Source: Terriglobia bacterium (lineage in GTDB: Bacteria; Acidobacteriota; Terriglobia; 20CM-2-55-15). From it: DNA of 14,937 nucleotides. The stretch is taken from contig CBDCLE010000013.1 in the NCBI GenBank assembly GCA_965218585.1, positions 1 through 14,937 on the forward strand, given 5' to 3'. A program made the translations under genes and the position numbers. Numbering within the stretch: the first letter of the stretch is position 1; every line of letters begins with the position of its first letter. Positions 552-14,937 of this stretch are shown here, piece after piece. The notes beneath the pieces are model-generated. The model had not been told where the DNA came from, searched no databases, and worked only from the letters and a program-made list of their open reading frames with translations.

Positions 552-553
552 CG

Positions 554-748
554 ATTTTCGAACATGGTTTGGAACTGTACCGTGAAGCCGATTTCGACGG
601 CGCGGACCAGGCATTTGACCACGTCATGAAACTTGTTCCGGAAGATGGGCCTTCGCGTATGATGAAGGCGCGCGTCGAAAAATATCGCGCGGAGTTCGTC
701 GGGGCAAGGTCGGAGTTCGATCCGATTCACAAGTTTGACGAGAAATAG
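554..748 (+). pseudogene. Severed C-terminal tail of a probable class III adenylate/guanylate cyclase (TPR-like tail), cut off by the IS1 element
   Basis: Start-less open frame not in the ORF track: IFEHGLELYREADFDGADQAFDHVMKLVPEDGPSRMMKARVEKYRAEFVGARSEFDPIHKFDEK*. It matches the F-x2-GL-x2-YR...A-x3-F...P-x-DGPS...D-x5-EK tail I recognise from CHASE2-type cyclases. It stops 26 nt before the FecR gene. Confidence 0.6.
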
Positions 749-774
749 CCTGGAAACAGCTTGGACACAGCCAG

Positions 775-2358
775 ATGGACAGCAAGAACCGACATTACTC
801 TCTGAAGGCAGTCGCGTTGGGAACCGCCGTGGCAATGCTGTTGGGTTGCTTTCCACTGGATCTGGGAGCAGAGCCTGGTGACATCGTCGGTGACATCGTT
901 CTCCTGGGTACAGTTGAGAGATCTGGTCGGCGTCTCACTAATGACGCAACGCTTTTCGAAGGCGACACTATACGAACAGCTTCGTCGAGTGGCGGCGTAC
1001 TTCGCCTCGGGGGAGCCCGTATGGAAATCGGGCAGTCCACCTACCTGGAAATAGTTCGTGCCGAACCTCTGACGATCACGCTGAGTTCCGGTTCGCTTGC
1101 TTTCAATTTTCCTGACGAGTTCGCATTCGAGATTACGACGCCGCAACTCGAAGTTCGTCCGAACCCCGAGTCTCGGGCGGTTTCGGGAGAAATTCTCGCT
1201 ATCCCGGAGGACGAAGACCGCGTCGAGAGCCGCAACGGCTCCCTGAGTATCCTGGAAAGACAGGAACACGGTGCGATCCGCATTGTGAACGGAGGAGAAA
1301 TCCTGATCGCATCGTTAGTACCCACGGTCTCCATACCGGTTGCCAGCCCTACGTTTGCGCCCCTGCAGGCGCCAACCCCTATCGCCCAATTCCAGGCCGT
1401 TGAAGGTGACGTCCGGCTCCAGCGTGTCAATACCACCCTGACAACACGTGTGGAGAATCCAGGCATCGCTTTGTTCAACGGCGATTCCGTGAGCACCCTT
1501 CAAGGTCGCGCTGATATCCTGTTCACAGATCAAAGCCTGATCAGTCTCGACGTCGGCACCACGGTCACGCTCGAAGAGCAACCCCAGCCTACTGGCATCT
1601 TCCGTCGCATCACGCAGGGCTTGGGCAACCTCTTCTTCGACATCCAGCAGGTTGTGGGAACCGAAACCTCACTTGAAACACCGACAGCGGTGGCAGCAAT
1701 AAGAGGAACGGAAGGTAATCAGATTGTCCCCAACGAAACTCAGAGCACGCACGCGCTGAATGAAGGACTGGAAGACATTACTGAGCGGATCACACAGCAG
1801 ACCGTCACGATAACCGACGGCCAGCAGGTCACCGCGATTCGGGGTGTCGGTTTCACTCCCATCGTTGCCCTGTTAGCCCTGATCCCCAGACCGGGGATTG
1901 GCGGGGGCGGCGGTGCTGCGGGCGGTGGTGCTGCAGGCGGCGGCGCGGGCGCCGGTGCGGGAGCTGGTGCTGGCGGCGCAGCCGGCGGAGCGGCGGGAGC
2001 AGCCGCCGGAGCCGCAACGTCCACGGTAACGTCTGTCGCCTCTGTCGCCGCAGCGACGGCAGCTACAGCGGCCGGTGTTACAGCTGCCGTTGTTATTCCA
2101 ACCACAAGCGACGAACCCGAGCCGGAAGACACGGCGACCGTACCGCTGAGCCGGCCGGGAGGCGAACTCACAACGGGGGGCGAACTCACCGCCGCACTTT
2201 CCGTACCGATCGCCAGCCGAAGCGGCCCACCACCCGCCAGTGCATCCGCACCCGGACGGCCTCTAGGTCGACCTCCTGATCGGTCAGACGGACCACCAGG
2301 ACAGCAGGAGGGTGGACCACCGGGACAGCCGGAAGACAGCCCTGTCGGACGACCATAG
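775..2358 (+). CDS. Exported protein with two tandem FecR-like domains, Gly/Ala linker, hydrophobic segment and Pro-rich tail (527 aa)
   Basis: N-terminal signal-like segment (KAVALGTAVAMLLGC). Two FecR-type repeats: LFEGDTIRT...GSLAF...EITTPQLEV and LFNGDSVST...ADILFTDQSLISL...LETPTAVAAIRGT. Confidence 0.75.
   Translation: MDSKNRHYSLKAVALGTAVAMLLGCFPLDLGAEPGDIVGDIVLLGTVERSGRRLTNDATLFEGDTIRTASSSGGVLRLGGARMEIGQSTYLEIVRAEPLTITLSSGSLAFNFPDEFAFEITTPQLEVRPNPESRAVSGEILAIPEDEDRVESRNGSLSILERQEHGAIRIVNGGEILIASLVPTVSIPVASPTFAPLQAPTPIAQFQAVEGDVRLQRVNTTLTTRVENPGIALFNGDSVSTLQGRADILFTDQSLISLDVGTTVTLEEQPQPTGIFRRITQGLGNLFFDIQQVVGTETSLETPTAVAAIRGTEGNQIVPNETQSTHALNEGLEDITERITQQTVTITDGQQVTAIRGVGFTPIVALLALIPRPGIGGGGGAAGGGAAGGGAGAGAGAGAGGAAGGAAGAAAGAATSTVTSVASVAAATAATAAGVTAAVVIPTTSDEPEPEDTATVPLSRPGGELTTGGELTAALSVPIASRSGPPPASASAPGRPLGRPPDRSDGPPGQQEGGPPGQPEDSPVGRP
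1900..2016 (+). repeat. Low-complexity Gly/Ala-coding tract inside the FecR-domain gene
   Basis: Encodes GGGGGAAGGGAAGGGAGAGAGAGAGGAAGGAAGAAAGAA with varied synonymous codons. Confidence 0.85.
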
Positions 2359-2449
2359 AAAACGAGTTGCAGTCAGTCCCGCGCCTGACTTAACAGGAGA
2401 CTGCACAAACCAGACCGGACTGCATCCGTAGTTCAATGTTTGAACCAAC

Positions 2450-2477
2450 CTGTCAGATCCGCCATAGGCGGTAGAAT
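2450..2477 (+). promoter_or_regulatory. Possible sigma70-type promoter for the redoxin gene
   Basis: CTGTCA (2450-2455), 16 nt spacer, TAGAAT (2472-2477), 10 nt upstream of ATG 2488. There is no clear SD before 2488. Confidence 0.3.
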
Positions 2478-2487
2478 GACCCGCTCA

Positions 2488-2998
2488 ATGTTGAAAGATC
2501 ACACGGACACACTGAGGAAGGGATATCCGGCGCCCGAATTTGAGCTACAGACGGCGAACGGGGAAAAAAATCGCCAGCAAAGATCTCAAGGGCAAAAAGG
2601 CGGTGGTGTTTTTCCTGCGGGGAACCTGGTGACCCAACAGCAGAAGGCAACTGACTCAGTTGGAGTCAGACTGGCATGAATTTGATCGGAGGGGCATAGG
2701 AGTCGTGTGCATCGCTGCACAGAAAATCGACAGCATCACAGGAGCGAAGAAATTCGTCGAGGAACACAACTACAGGTTTCCGATCCTGTTTGACGAAACT
2801 CGCGAAATCACCAAAGCATACGGCGTGTATCACTTCATCGGTTTCGATGCGTATCGGATCTCCCACCCCGCAGCGTTCATCCTCGATCCCGAAGGAAGAA
2901 TCCAATGGATCGCCGTCAGCCCGAATCAGGTAGAACTGCCGGTGAACCGAGATATCTTCGAAACCATTCAAGCTATCGAAGCCTCCGGTAAATATTGA
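2488..2998 (+). CDS. AhpC/TSA (peroxiredoxin-like) redoxin, probable selenoprotein (UxxS); one extra A at 2564-2570 shifts the frame as written
   Basis: Removing one A from the A7 run gives MLKDHTDTLRKGYPAPEFELQTANGEKIASKDLKGKKAVVFFLRGTW[TGA 2630-2632]PNSRRQLTQLESDW...FPILFD...AYGV...PAAFILDPEGRI, 169 aa. TGA occupies the first Cys of the RGxWCPxC motif. Alternative start at 2476. Confidence 0.8.
2630..2669 (+). promoter_or_regulatory. Putative bacterial SECIS element downstream of in-frame UGA
   Basis: Perfect 7-bp stem CTGACTC (2651-2657) / GAGTCAG (2663-2669) with apical loop AGTTG. There are 25 nt between the UGA and the loop, and G is at loop position 2 followed by U, fitting the bacterial SECIS consensus. 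Confidence 0.65.
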
Positions 2999-3500
2999 AA
3001 CCCACCTTGAAGGAATCTGTCCCGTTCACCGTGTACTGAGCCGTCGTCAAGGGACGGGCGGTGGAGAGAACGAACTTAAAGGTATGCCGGAAGGTAGCTT
3101 TCTGAACGCCCACCGAAACGGCCGGCCGATCGAATATCTCTCCGGTAAATCCCTTCACACGAGGCACATACTCTCCTACTACCGAGACAGACGGGGTGAG
3201 TCTCACGCCTGCACCCACACCGATCGCGGCCGTGTAGTCAAACTCTTCTCCGAAGAGAAACTGTGACGGCAGGAACGTGTCGTCGTTCCGGGTATTGAAG
3301 GCAATACTGGGCGCAACGGAAAGCGAAAATCGGTCTCCGAAGCTTCGTGTCGAAACGAATTGCACGAACGGAGCAAACCGATCCCGAAAGTTATTCCGGC
3401 CTTCGATTCCAACGCGAAGCTGTGTAGACAACGGGGTTTCGGAACTCTGCTGGGAAAGTTGGAACTGCGAACTGAGTTCTATGGTCCGATCCAGGTTGCT
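2973..3500 (-). pseudogene. 3' part of a DUF5777-like outer-membrane beta-barrel gene, 5' end removed at the IS21 boundary
   Basis: Amphipathic beta-strand pattern: SNLDRTIEL...FSLSVAPSIAFNT...AIGVGAGVRLTPSVSVVGEY...VGVQKATFRHTFKFVLST...FKVGFNIYR. The ORF-track N-terminus (3501-3602) is only translated IS21 repeats. The 3' end overlaps the convergent redoxin by 26 nt. Confidence 0.65.
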
Positions 3501-3504
3501 GACC

Positions 3505-3630
3505 ATCCTGAACACTGATTCCGATCCATCGTGAACACCGATTCCGGGATCGTGAACGCGGATTCCGGGATCCTGAACAGTGATTCCGGTGATCCTGAAC
3601 ACCGATTCCGGCCATCGTGATCACTCGTCG
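3505..3630 (+). repeat. IS21 left-end array: six ~21-23 bp tandem units (transposase binding sites)
   Basis: Units of ATC(C/G)TGAACAC(C/T)GATTCCGG-like sequence with no unique spacers. Confidence 0.9.
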
Positions 3631-10182: not shown

Positions 10183-11073
10183 CTTCTTCCTCCTCCTCGA
10201 TTATCTCTGCTACGGCAAACGTGATTGCCACAGCAAGCAGACTGTAGTGCCCGGTAGCAATATTAAACCACAGGGCGGAGCCAGCGAACGTCGTCGCCTG
10301 CAGGAAGGCTCCTTCATTCATGTCGGTGATTATCGCTCAGACGAATATAAATATTGGACAAGAAAGCTTCGATGTTTTGCTGTCTTGCCCTGGATGCGGA
10401 ATCAGTGCTGAATGGCTGGTCAGGTGAAGGGAAATCGCTTGTGCCGCGCGTGCTCAACACGGCTAGCCTAGAAGTTCCGCGAACAGTTGCTTCGCCTGTT
10501 CTTCGTCATCCGTAAATGAAACAACCTTCGCGAAAGTGAGGAGGGCATCTACTCGCTCATCTGCTTTGCCGATTTGAAACTCTCGAATGACCGCTTTGAG
10601 TGTTTCGCAGTAGGAGTTACCCGCGAGATCGAGGGCCACAGCCACGAGGAAGTTGAACGCTTCCTCCCGTATTTCCACGACACCCACAATGCCTGAATGG
10701 ACATACCAGCTCATTTGAGGATAAAAACGCTCATACCACTCTTCAAACGGTTCACCTAAGCCCTCTACACGCGACGCAAGACTGCTGATTCCTGACCAGT
10801 GTTAAACTTTTTCTGCATCCGGCCAGAGGTGGCTCTGGAGAGTTTTGACCCTATCTGCTTCATTGTCGATGAACGATTTGTACGTTGTTGTCTCAAAGCC
10901 TGCCCCGGAATGCTTTTCCTTAAACTTGACGAGTTTTCTGGCAACTCTAAGCTTTTCGATGTCCGTGAAAGCTGCAATCTTCGCTTCTGAGTTGGAGACC
11001 GTATGAATCAGAGCTATCTCAACTGCCGTTTCAAAGAGGTTCCTGAACCTCCCCGGGTTTTCCGGAGACAGTT

Positions 11074-12302
<1,229 letters not shown>

Positions 12303-12624
12303 GATGACTCCAATTCTCTCAAGTAATGGAGTCTCCGGAAAACCCGGGGAGGTTCATCCTGGCTATCATCGCGATAACCTGGAAATCACGTGTTCCGGTC
12401 AGGTCTACGAGAGTCTGCACGTTGCCATAGACCCGGTAGTAGTTGCCGATCACCTGATTCTCGTGGACCGTTGGCGTAATAAGCGTCTGGACGACCCCGT
12501 GAATCCTGTCTTGGTCAAACTCAAACAGGCTCTTCACAGTCGCGTAGAATCGTTCGACTGTTTCCTTCGTTTTCATCGCCTTCCTTGCCAGGAGAACCGT
12601 ACATCTGGCACCCTATCGGCACCC

Positions 12625-12655: not shown

Positions 12656-12672
12656 AAGTGCTTTGTTATCAA

Positions 12673-12745
12673 TGAGCCGTACAGGGATCGAACCTGTGAC
12701 CCTCTGCTTAAAAGGCAGATGCTCTACCAACTGAGCTAACGGCCC
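12673..12745 (-). tRNA. tRNA-Lys (anticodon UUU), CCA not encoded
   Basis: GGGCCGT TA GCTC AGTTGGTA GAGC A TCTGC CT TTT AA GCAGA GGGTC ACAGG TTCGATC CCTGT ACGGCTC A folds into a full 73-nt cloverleaf. Confidence 0.97.
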
Positions 12746-12811
12746 ACTCACGTGAACGTTTCTATCGTAACGCAGGAATCAAGCGCGGGGAAATAGGGGG
12801 ACGCGTGCCTA

Positions 12812-14098
12812 TTACGGAACGTGGAGTGTTTCTTCTCTCTCAGGTCCGGTCGACACCATACTGACCGGGCGTTCCATGAAGTCGGAGAGGAAGCGGACGT
12901 AGTCGCGGGCCTTTTCGGGAAGCTGTTCCCACTCGCGTGTCCCAGCAATCGAGGCGTTCCATCCGGGGAGATTCTTATAAATGGGCTCCACCTTATCCAG
13001 AACGTTCGCATCAGCGGGGAACTCATCGATCGGTGTTCCCTTGTAGGTATAGCCGACACAGACCGGGATCTCCTCGAACGTATCCAGGACGTCGATCTTC
13101 GTGATCGTAATAGAGTCCATGTCGTTGATCATCACCGAATAGCGGGCGGCCGCTCCGTCGAACCAGCCGCACCGCCTGGGCCGTCCCGTTGTCGAACCGT
13201 ACTCGTCGCCCTCTGAACGAAGGCGTTCGGCCGTCGATCCGTTGGCCTCGGTTGGGAACGGCCCTCCACCCACACGCGTGGCGTAAGCCTTCATGATGCC
13301 CATCACGGCATGAATGTGTTTGGGAGCGATTCCCAGACCGCTGGGGATTCCGCACGCGGTAGAACTCGAAGACGTTACGTACGGAAATGTCCCGTGGTCG
13401 ACATCGAGCAGGGTCGCCTGAGCGCCTTCGAAGAGAATCCGTTTGCCATCCTTCAACATCCTGTTTATCAGAGTCGTCGTATCGGCAAACAGGGGGCCGA
13501 GCCGTTCGGCGTACTCTCGATAAGCGTCACAGATCGGTTCGGGGTCAATTTCCTGAGGGTAGTTCAGGGCTTCCAGTGTGCGGTTCTTCTGTCCGACCTG
13601 TTCCCGAATGCGGTCGGCCAGGCTCTCGGGATTCATCAGGTCGCAGACCCGGAGGCCTCGGCGCGCCATCTTGTCTTCATAAGCCGGACCGATTCCACGG
13701 GACGTAGTCCCGATCTTCCTCTCGCCCATCTGAAGCTCCAGTGCAGCTTCCAGGACCCGGTGATAGGGGAGGATCAAATGGCAGCGGTTCGAAATGAACA
13801 GACGTCCTTCAACTTTAATTCCGCCTTCGGCCAATCCATCGCATTCCTCGATCAGGGCCAGCGGGTCGAGGACCACGCCGCTTCCAATGACACACTGCAT
13901 TTCAGGATGGAAGATGCCCGAAGGGATCAGATGGAGGATGAATCGTTGACTGCCGATCCGGATCGTGTGGCCGGCGTTATGCCCACCCTGGTAGCGGGCC
14001 ACGACATCGAAGTCGTCAGAGAGGATATCGATGATCTTCCCCTTGCCTTCGTCACCCCACTGCGCACCGACGACCGCAAGGTTCTCGTTGTTCGCCAT
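12812..14098 (-). CDS. purA: Adenylosuccinate synthetase
   Basis: QWGDEGKGK, RYQGGHNAGHT, IGTTSRGIGPAY, FEGAQ...DHGTFPYVTSS, STTGRPRRCGWFD, TKIDVLD, STGP. Confidence 0.99.
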   Translation of the reverse strand: MANNENLAVVGAQWGDEGKGKIIDILSDDFDVVARYQGGHNAGHTIRIGSQRFILHLIPSGIFHPEMQCVIGSGVVLDPLALIEECDGLAEGGIKVEGRLFISNRCHLILPYHRVLEAALELQMGERKIGTTSRGIGPAYEDKMARRGLRVCDLMNPESLADRIREQVGQKNRTLEALNYPQEIDPEPICDAYREYAERLGPLFADTTTLINRMLKDGKRILFEGAQATLLDVDHGTFPYVTSSSSTACGIPSGLGIAPKHIHAVMGIMKAYATRVGGGPFPTEANGSTAERLRSEGDEYGSTTGRPRRCGWFDGAAARYSVMINDMDSITITKIDVLDTFEEIPVCVGYTYKGTPIDEFPADANVLDKVEPIYKNLPGWNASIAGTREWEQLPEKARDYVRFLSDFMERPVSMVSTGPEREETLHVP

Positions 14099-14136
14099 GT
14101 CAGCTTTCTAGCCTGGGATCGGCCGGGAAGGTTGTT

Positions 14137-14475
14137 TTACTCGGCCTCGAAATAGTAGCCGCAGTCTTCGTCGATCTCTCTCAGGTCCTGGGGGACGAGA
14201 GGGAAGACGCGGCACTGAGCGAAGTGTTCCCCGTAGATCTCGCAACTGAATTCCCCATTGGCTTCTTGGAGGAAGGGGCACTTCATCAGGATCTTGCAGC
14301 AGGCACCACAACGGGTGCACTCTCCGCGCCGCTCTGCCAGCAGTTGGTCGTTGTCGCGGGTATAAACGTTAGACCGGATGAAACGGCGAATCTTTCCTCT
14401 GATCTGCAGGGCCCTGAAACGGACCTTCTCGACCCGCGGGTCTATGGTCGGCGCATTTATGACTGGAAGTTCCAC
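14137..14475 (-). CDS. Cys-cluster protein, CxxCxxCC (YkgJ-like putative Zn/Fe-chelating) family, 112 aa
   Basis: ECTRCGACC...CPFL...CEIY...QCRVFP...CGY pattern. GTG start with GGAG upstream. Co-directional between trxA and purA. Confidence 0.75.
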   Translation of the reverse strand: MELPVINAPTIDPRVEKVRFRALQIRGKIRRFIRSNVYTRDNDQLLAERRGECTRCGACCKILMKCPFLQEANGEFSCEIYGEHFAQCRVFPLVPQDLREIDEDCGYYFEAE

Positions 14476-14499
14476 TGCAAGCTCCGCTGGAAGATTTGC

Positions 14500-14829
14500 C
14501 TAGGAGAGATGCTTGGATATGGCGCCTACGATCGCGTCCTTCGGGACAGCGCCGACCAGTTGTTCCTTGACCTGACCGTCCTTGAACAGGAGCAACGTCG
14601 GTATGCCTCGAATCTGAAAACGTGCTGACAGACCGCTGTGTGCATCCACATCGAGTTTGCCGACCTTGACCTTACCCAGGTATTCCTCAGCAATCTGATC
14701 CACGGTGGGTGCCAAGGCCCGGCAGGGACCACACCACGCCGCCCAAAAATCGATGAGCACAGGTACGTCGGATTTTTCGACTTCGCTTTCGAAGTTTGAG
14801 TCTGTAATTTCTACGGTATTAGCTCCCAT
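14500..14829 (-). CDS. trxA: Thioredoxin
   Basis: PVLIDFWAAWCGPC, IRGIPTLLLFKDG; 109 aa; GGAG SD at 14836-14839. Confidence 0.97.
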   Translation of the reverse strand: MGANTVEITDSNFESEVEKSDVPVLIDFWAAWCGPCRALAPTVDQIAEEYLGKVKVGKLDVDAHSGLSARFQIRGIPTLLLFKDGQVKEQLVGAVPKDAIVGAISKHLS

Positions 14830-14864
14830 CAGTGTCTCCAGATAAGGTTTGGCGCAAGATCAGT

Positions 14865-14893
14865 AAGTTAACGGACACGTCCTGAAAAGTCAA
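14865..14893 (-). promoter_or_regulatory. Putative sigma70 promoter for trxA
   Basis: Minus strand TTGACT, 17 nt spacer, TAACTT, 35 nt upstream of the trxA ATG. Confidence 0.55.
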
Positions 14894-14937
14894 ACAGTTG
14901 GCTTGTTCTGGAACCGGAGTGGGCGCCAGTGGTCGAG

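Follow-up and report, generated by a model that had tools for sequence, protein, structure and literature searches.

Positions 2488–2998 of the window (the whole stretch of DNA analysed here, 14,937 bp, which is the complete contig C13 of a 26-contig, 4.55-Mb genome) raise the question of whether a TGA inside the active-site sequence of a redoxin gene is a stop or a selenocysteine (Sec) codon, and whether the gene as assembled could then yield a full protein. This span, whose 511 nt are no multiple of 3, would be one copy of a conserved gene, 169 codons long, that encodes a cytoplasmic redoxin with a thioredoxin fold (Table 1). The initial annotation had joined two partial open reading frames (2440–2679 and 2660–2998) into one gene; that they form one coding sequence held up, but they lie in different frames (frame 1 and, for the downstream one with the TGA, frame 2), and the switch between them falls in a run of seven A's. 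The TGA itself was confirmed in the frame of the downstream reading frame, where VVFFLRGTW precedes and PNSRRQL follows it (the FFLRGTW and PNS context first reported), and frame 2 from 2561 to 2995 forms a 145-residue thioredoxin-fold read-through with this single TGA. Thioredoxin-fold sequence was said to continue on both sides, and domain matches do run across the codon: Pfam AhpC-TSA over residues 1–116 of the read-through (83.4 bits against a cut-off of 26) and Pfam Redoxin over residues 2–125 (63.1 bits). In the paralogue and the orthologues, the initiating Met lies 47 codons ahead of Sec. A change of genetic code was rejected because the gene and most of its orthologues terminate at an ordinary TGA.

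Table 1 Features of the redoxin gene copy, in positions of the window.
Feature	Position	Strand	Description
5′ coding part	2488..2568	+	Frame 1, ATG at 2488, 27 codons; matches the N-terminus of the paralogue and orthologues
A7 homopolymer (one A in excess)	2564..2570	+	+1 frameshift relative to all relatives
Remaining coding sequence, including Sec48	2570..2995	+	Frame 2, 142 codons; Pfam AhpC-TSA (1.6e-23) and Redoxin (3.3e-17)
UGA, almost certainly Sec (residue 48, first position of the UPNS motif)	2630..2632	+	TGA/Cys column and ResA alignment
SECIS-type hairpin	2651..2669	+	7-bp stem CUGACUC/GAGUCAG (2651-2657/2663-2669), 5-bp core 2653-2657/2663-2667, loop AGUUG 2658-2662
Ordinary TGA stop	2996..2998	+	Protein alignment of the paralogue and most orthologues ends there

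We assessed the TGA column by a six-frame search of 40 relatives and the window's own genome, which returned 15 orthologue-level loci (E values from 5e-27 to 8e-97) in 14 genomes, and every one of the 15, the window's two copies included, contains a single TGA, placed between GTW and P. Across a phylum-wide sample, the gene was found in 14 of 401 genomes at E ≤ 1e-20, the window's genome among the 14; outside that genome, the 13 sample loci divide into 12 with TGA and one with TGC. The Sec column thus reads TGA in 26 and TGC or TGT in two (L058 and L049) of 28 related loci, a total that includes the weaker Cys locus L049 and, as the relatives are kin, overstates independence; the TGA is kept among homologues down to 36–44% identity. 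Further searching of genome contigs for related loci gave one useful locus, already in the set. Among public sequencing runs, no RNA run was listed as carrying the sequence and no run contained half of the sampled sequence words.

All ten fetched database homologues that span the site (nine full-length, of 169–174 aa, and one N-terminally cut, of 133 aa) have Cys at the Sec column and read RGTWCPNC, in agreement with the proposal that Sec replaces Cys in an RGxWCPxC motif; the full-length proteins are 51–61% identical and of the Cys type. Homologues with TGA or with Cys at this column, which the initial annotation had suggested looking for, therefore both exist, Cys occurring in two loci and ten proteins. 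Closer, Sec-type members are present in the protein collection only as C-terminal fragments of 95–133 residues, and the window's own database protein, of 97 aa, starts downstream of the active site, as had been foreseen for automated gene calls. Over 2561–2995, the window copy and the paralogue are 84% identical with a dN/dS of 0.125 (dS 0.66), and a ratio this low past the TGA indicates that the downstream frame is translated and under purifying selection.

A perfect 7-bp hairpin with an AGUUG loop had been described 25 nt past the UGA; it is exactly as described, with a gap of precisely that length between UGA and loop and an energy in context of −10.1 kcal/mol. The bacterial SECIS (bSECIS) model, as given in the Fig. 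2 legend of PMC13188914, asks for a loop of 3–9 nt, a stem of 4–16 bp, a G within the first two positions of the loop, a spacing of 16–37 nt and an energy of at most −7.5 kcal/mol, and the window hairpin (loop 5 nt, stem 7 bp, spacing 25 nt, −10.1 kcal/mol) lies within these constraints. Taken by itself, the sequence does not single out the hairpin: the 61-nt stretch folded alone has a z-score of −0.87 (34 of 200 shuffles fold as well), its minimum-energy fold differs from the reported hairpin, and an Rfam search of 2550–2760 at a permissive threshold gave chance-level matches (mir-378, snR75 and enod40) and no bacterial SECIS family. Together with the fact that a single change turns TGC or TGT into TGA, the non-significant fold and the lack of an Rfam match are what can be cited for the TGA being a simple nonsense mutation, or a read error, within a redoxin of the Cys type, the hairpin then being a coincidence of coding sequence. 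That the hairpin goes beyond chance is instead concluded from its conservation across relatives, and not from single-sequence folding.

For this comparison, 63 nt from the UGA onwards were aligned for 23 of the 26 Sec loci (L063, L064 and L066 were left out before counting). RNAalifold picks a 5-bp core from the 23 sequences (columns 24–28 with 34–38), in which 114 of 115 cells are paired, and 91.9% of the 161 cells of the 7-bp stem are paired, compared with 23–40% for slid partners. Three pairs of the 7-bp stem have changed on both sides, and its covariation score was reached by none of 500 shuffles, a control that kinship inflates. Pair 25:37 is AU in eight, GU in nine and GC in six of the 23 loci; double changes occur once each (CG to UA in one locus, and UA to GC in another, with a Glu-to-Ala replacement); and A29, G30 and U32 in the loop never vary. 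To control for coding constraint, we set codon use in the hairpin columns against that elsewhere in the same 23 genes, and the synonymous-site bias was strong: Ala/Thr codons end in T (GCT/ACT) in 21 of 22 cases at the hairpin column versus 51 of 439 elsewhere, Glu is GAG in 21 of 22 versus 65 of 160, and Gln at the loop column is CAG in 23 of 23 versus 75 of 119. An equivalent hairpin is absent from both Cys loci.

The alignment also holds a competing helix, in which the UGA and the next 8 nt pair with 2657–2668 (89.7% of cells paired; pair 6:33 occurs as CG, GU, GC and UG) and which excludes the hairpin. It may be an alternative or alternating conformation, and because it scores nearly as well, the exact shape of the SECIS element is not settled. 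Two further observations concern individual loci. L063, L064 and L066 have a different peptide after the motif and lack the family hairpin, carrying instead a candidate hairpin (CGCCG-GUU-CGGYG) that starts 12 nt past the UGA, so that, in this subgroup, one SECIS element appears to have given way to another inside a single protein family. L039, the orthologue in genome G002, keeps the TGA and the SECIS hairpin, and the conserved N-terminus of about 25 residues is absent in any frame; this locus may be 5′-truncated or rearranged.

The genome itself was expected to encode Sec machinery, and this stood in full for three of the components: tRNA-Sec (73.2 bits; called SeC/tca by ARAGORN), selB (376 bits) and selD (356 bits, with an in-frame TGA of its own), all three being intact and above cut-off. 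For selA the expectation stood in part: the gene is present and above cut-off (484 bits), but is frameshifted in the assembly. It lies on contig C2 at about 238,246–239,591 on the minus strand (loci L017/L020), in two frames split near residue 410, and a 1-nt deletion relative to all four same-genus relatives leaves its last ~45 residues out of frame. Either the assembly is wrong at this base, or the deletion is genuine and Sec synthesis could be impaired. Eight of the ten redoxin (thioredoxin-fold) hits in the window's genome contain one in-frame TGA, as do most of the weaker hits in the 40 relatives, and the lineage appears rich in thioredoxin-fold selenoproteins.

Weighed together, these results already contradict the reading of the TGA as nonsense or read error, to which we give practically no credence: the same column holds TGA in nearly all loci, even in distant homologues, the frame 3′ of it is under purifying selection, the hairpin shows both covariation and synonymous-site bias, and Sec machinery is encoded in the genome. 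The same lines of evidence, with the Cys/Sec pairing of homologues, support the recoding first proposed, and on this comparative sequence evidence the UGA is almost certainly read as selenocysteine, which would also hold for many soil bacteria related to this one. In the mechanism that we propose, SelB and tRNA-Sec would recode the UGA, guided by the hairpin in the coding region, whose loop begins 25 nt after it.

The reading as a selenoprotein gene is well supported, and the window copy as assembled is frame-broken by one extra base. Its A7 run is one base longer than that of the paralogue on contig C26, which stays in frame, and the +1 frameshift falls 60 nt upstream of the TGA, after codon 27; because the extra A breaks the frame, UGA read-through alone does not yield the full protein from the assembled copy. 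We are highly confident in the account as a whole, namely a Sec-encoding redoxin gene copy, hairpin-guided UGA recoding and an extra A in the A7 run. As to where that A came from, the low dN/dS against the intact paralogue implies that the assembly is in error or that the lesion arose very recently.

An assembly error is the origin to which we lean, with moderate confidence. It is favoured because the site is a homopolymer in a copy under strong purifying selection; because selA, too, has a single-base indel relative to four of four same-genus relatives, and a real indel there would disable a pathway that at least eight other TGA-containing redoxin genes need; and because 16 near-identical insertion sequence (IS) copies in the genome differ from one another at three homopolymer indel sites. 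Within these IS3-type copies (for example, C4:155859-157172), an internal C3/C4 run is split 7:9 and two more indels, in G runs, are singletons; the C3/C4 split could reflect slippage at the site or miscalled homopolymers.

It is possible, although we doubt it, that the window copy is a real pseudogene that lost its function only recently, the paralogue on C26 being the functional copy. The assembly has seven A's where the paralogue and the contigs of all four public runs have one fewer (the latter lacking one base at 2564/2565), but all four of these contigs are of the paralogue type and, at 89–92% identity (58–77 differences per 710 nt), are uninformative on the A-run length in the window copy. 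An intact paralogue exists, and the contig is dense in IS1-, IS21-, IS30- and IS3-type genes, with a truncated DUF5777 gene next to the redoxin; the dN/dS at a dS of 0.66, by comparison, indicates purifying selection through nearly all of the divergence, so that any lesion would be very recent. Three long housekeeping genes free of frameshifts (rpoB, rpoC and carB, open over ~3,950 codons) indicate that the assembly is not riddled with indels and thus speak for a real lesion, whereas homopolymers are the typical place for long-read indel errors, and the indels in selA and among the IS copies point the other way. A database fragment 88% identical to the window copy and 83% identical to the paralogue, on a 445-kb contig elsewhere, further shows that the window-copy type exists elsewhere as a normal chromosomal gene, which also argues against a pseudogene and in favour of an assembly error.

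We regard as very improbable a third origin, in which the extra A is real and is corrected by transcriptional slippage or +1 ribosomal frameshifting, so that expression would take two recoding events. Long A/T runs are known to cause slippage in bacteria, and the frame switch sits exactly in the A7 run, but seven A's are short for efficient slippage, and no such run occupies this place in any of the other 14 orthologue-level loci (two of which, the paralogue and L036, were checked at single-base level), so that no conservation suggests a programmed site.

The neighbouring genes give no hint of redoxin function. Of eight family loci examined, seven have a DUF5777 barrel gene convergently downstream and six a FecR-domain gene upstream. 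In the window, the DUF5777 beta-barrel gene (2973–3602, minus strand) converges on the redoxin gene, with an overlap at the 3′ end of the latter. It encodes 209 aa, compared with 399–436 aa in relatives, and breaks off at the point where similarity to C26 gives out (3507) and an IS21 element begins. The FecR-domain gene (775–2358) contains a Gly/Ala-rich low-complexity stretch (1902–2017) with 15-nt and 19-nt indels relative to C26, the total of which is not a multiple of 3. More broadly, the IS-dense contig is a mosaic: 552–3507 is 92.6% identical to C26, 3518–5944 is 88% identical to C10 (IS21 istA/istB), 11043–12356 is an 80%-identical relative of the 16 IS3-type copies, and 12671–14905 is 92.6% identical to C5 and includes a second, intact purA (12812–14098). 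This structure suggests either that a second strain was binned into this genome or that IS elements mediated a duplication. The divergence of the redoxin gene is itself mosaic, its interior (2618–2917) being only 81–85% identical to the paralogue and its flanks 93–98%, a pattern that recombination with a more distant allele would be expected to leave.

Turning to the protein, an AlphaFold model of the intact paralogue (29-sequence alignment; pLDDT 92.3, pTM 0.89) places residue 48 directly ahead of a predicted helix at 49–60. A Foldseek search of the PDB with this model returned peroxiredoxins first (Bcp4, AhpE and AhpC), with ResA among the matches, and in the phmmer alignment the two Cys of the ResA CxxC motif stand opposite Sec (the first) and the Ser of the window copy (the second). 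Residues F42, R44, G45, T46, W47, U/C48, P49, F97, L100, D102, R105 and G112 are invariant in the family. Of the 26 Sec loci, 22 carry UxxC, and the remaining four (the window copy, the paralogue, L038 and L055) carry UxxS. All 13 NCBIfam hits fell below cut-off, including all peroxiredoxin (Prx), ResA and selenoprotein-specific models; none of the Prx equivalog cut-offs was reached (AhpC 40.8 against 272, BCP 38.9 against 140, PrxU 28.6 against 270 and PrxQ 16.5 against 260). The description of the product as a peroxiredoxin-like redoxin was therefore borne out for the AhpC/TSA domain and the Prx-type fold, but not for the motif, which is of a ResA-like CxxC type, nor at the level of the Prx equivalogs.

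From sequence and model, we read the product as a probable cytoplasmic Sec-dependent thiol/selenol oxidoreductase on a peroxiredoxin-type scaffold, which may act on a peroxide or on a disulfide. The selenol, at the N-terminus of helix 1, would be the attacking nucleophile; in most orthologues (UxxC), a selenenylsulfide would form with the Cys three residues on, and in the UxxS copies resolving a Sec that is oxidised or bound to substrate would require an external thiol, as 1-Cys and monothiol enzymes do. The combined proposition that loss of the resolving Cys in this genus (UxxS) has made the redoxin a one-selenol enzyme, of peroxidase-like or monothiol character and reliant on an external thiol, and that the window copy is a real allele needing both slippage and Sec insertion strikes us as highly unlikely.

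The main value of these results lies in annotation correction: public calls of Sec-type members cover only C-terminal fragments and miss the catalytic residue, and the Sec-type members of this clade are picked up by no NCBIfam model. They also add to the picture of Terriglobia-type Acidobacteria as organisms with many thioredoxin-fold selenoproteins. The kind of selenoprotein is already known and no new mechanism is revealed; the change from UxxC to UxxS and the frameshifted copy are minor twists.

Among known systems, Bacillus subtilis ResA (PDB 3c71, 1st9 and others) matches the redoxin in sequence better than any other solved structure (E 4e-14), and its GTW-C-x-x-C segment aligns position by position, the first Cys opposite Sec. 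The redoxin differs from ResA in scoring 55.6 bits against an NCBIfam ResA cut-off of 170, in showing no N-terminal membrane anchor or signal on inspection of the sequence and alignment, and in having a 10-residue insertion absent from ResA. The best structural matches to the modelled paralogue are the BCP/PrxQ and AhpE peroxiredoxins (PDB 3hjp and 4x1u), with TM scores of 0.83/0.88 and an rmsd of 1.8 Å over 155 columns for the predicted superposition on Bcp4 (3hjp), whereas in sequence the redoxin falls far below all Prx equivalog cut-offs. The peroxiredoxin signature is T-x-x-C; here Thr stands two rather than three residues before Sec, so that this signature is absent.

Closest in kind are selenoproteins that have already been catalogued. 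Families with an AhpC/TSA domain are listed in Table 1 of PMC13188914 and Table 2 of PMC2398784, with PMC1976440 a further paper cited beside these catalogues. The entries include a "Prx-like thiol:disulfide oxidoreductase" (PF00578, UxxC/UxxU; 'predicted with high confidence' in Table 1 of PMC13188914), a "Redoxin family protein" (PF08534, UxxC) and 'Prx-like 1' (Table 2 of PMC2398784). In the main text of the BSepDB paper (PMC13326102), the searched terms had no match, and the supplementary family lists could name the clade. An AhpC/TSA-like UxxS selenoprotein (cd02970) resembles the window copy, by motif and Pfam domain, in its AhpC/TSA-like character, UxxS motif and single Sec, but in our clade most loci have UxxC, and UxxS (4 of 26 loci) is derived from it. 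With the Prx-like selenoproteins the gene shares, as far as the table descriptions allow the comparison, the PF00578 domain, Sec as the first residue of a CxxC-type motif, Cys homologues and a SECIS element in the coding region, the window copy, its paralogue and two further loci differing in being UxxS. The clade fits the UxxC class, the window copy is a UxxS variant (U-P-N-S), and the gene is, by those catalogue entries, a member of the known "Prx-like" UxxC/UxxS class of bacterial selenoproteins.
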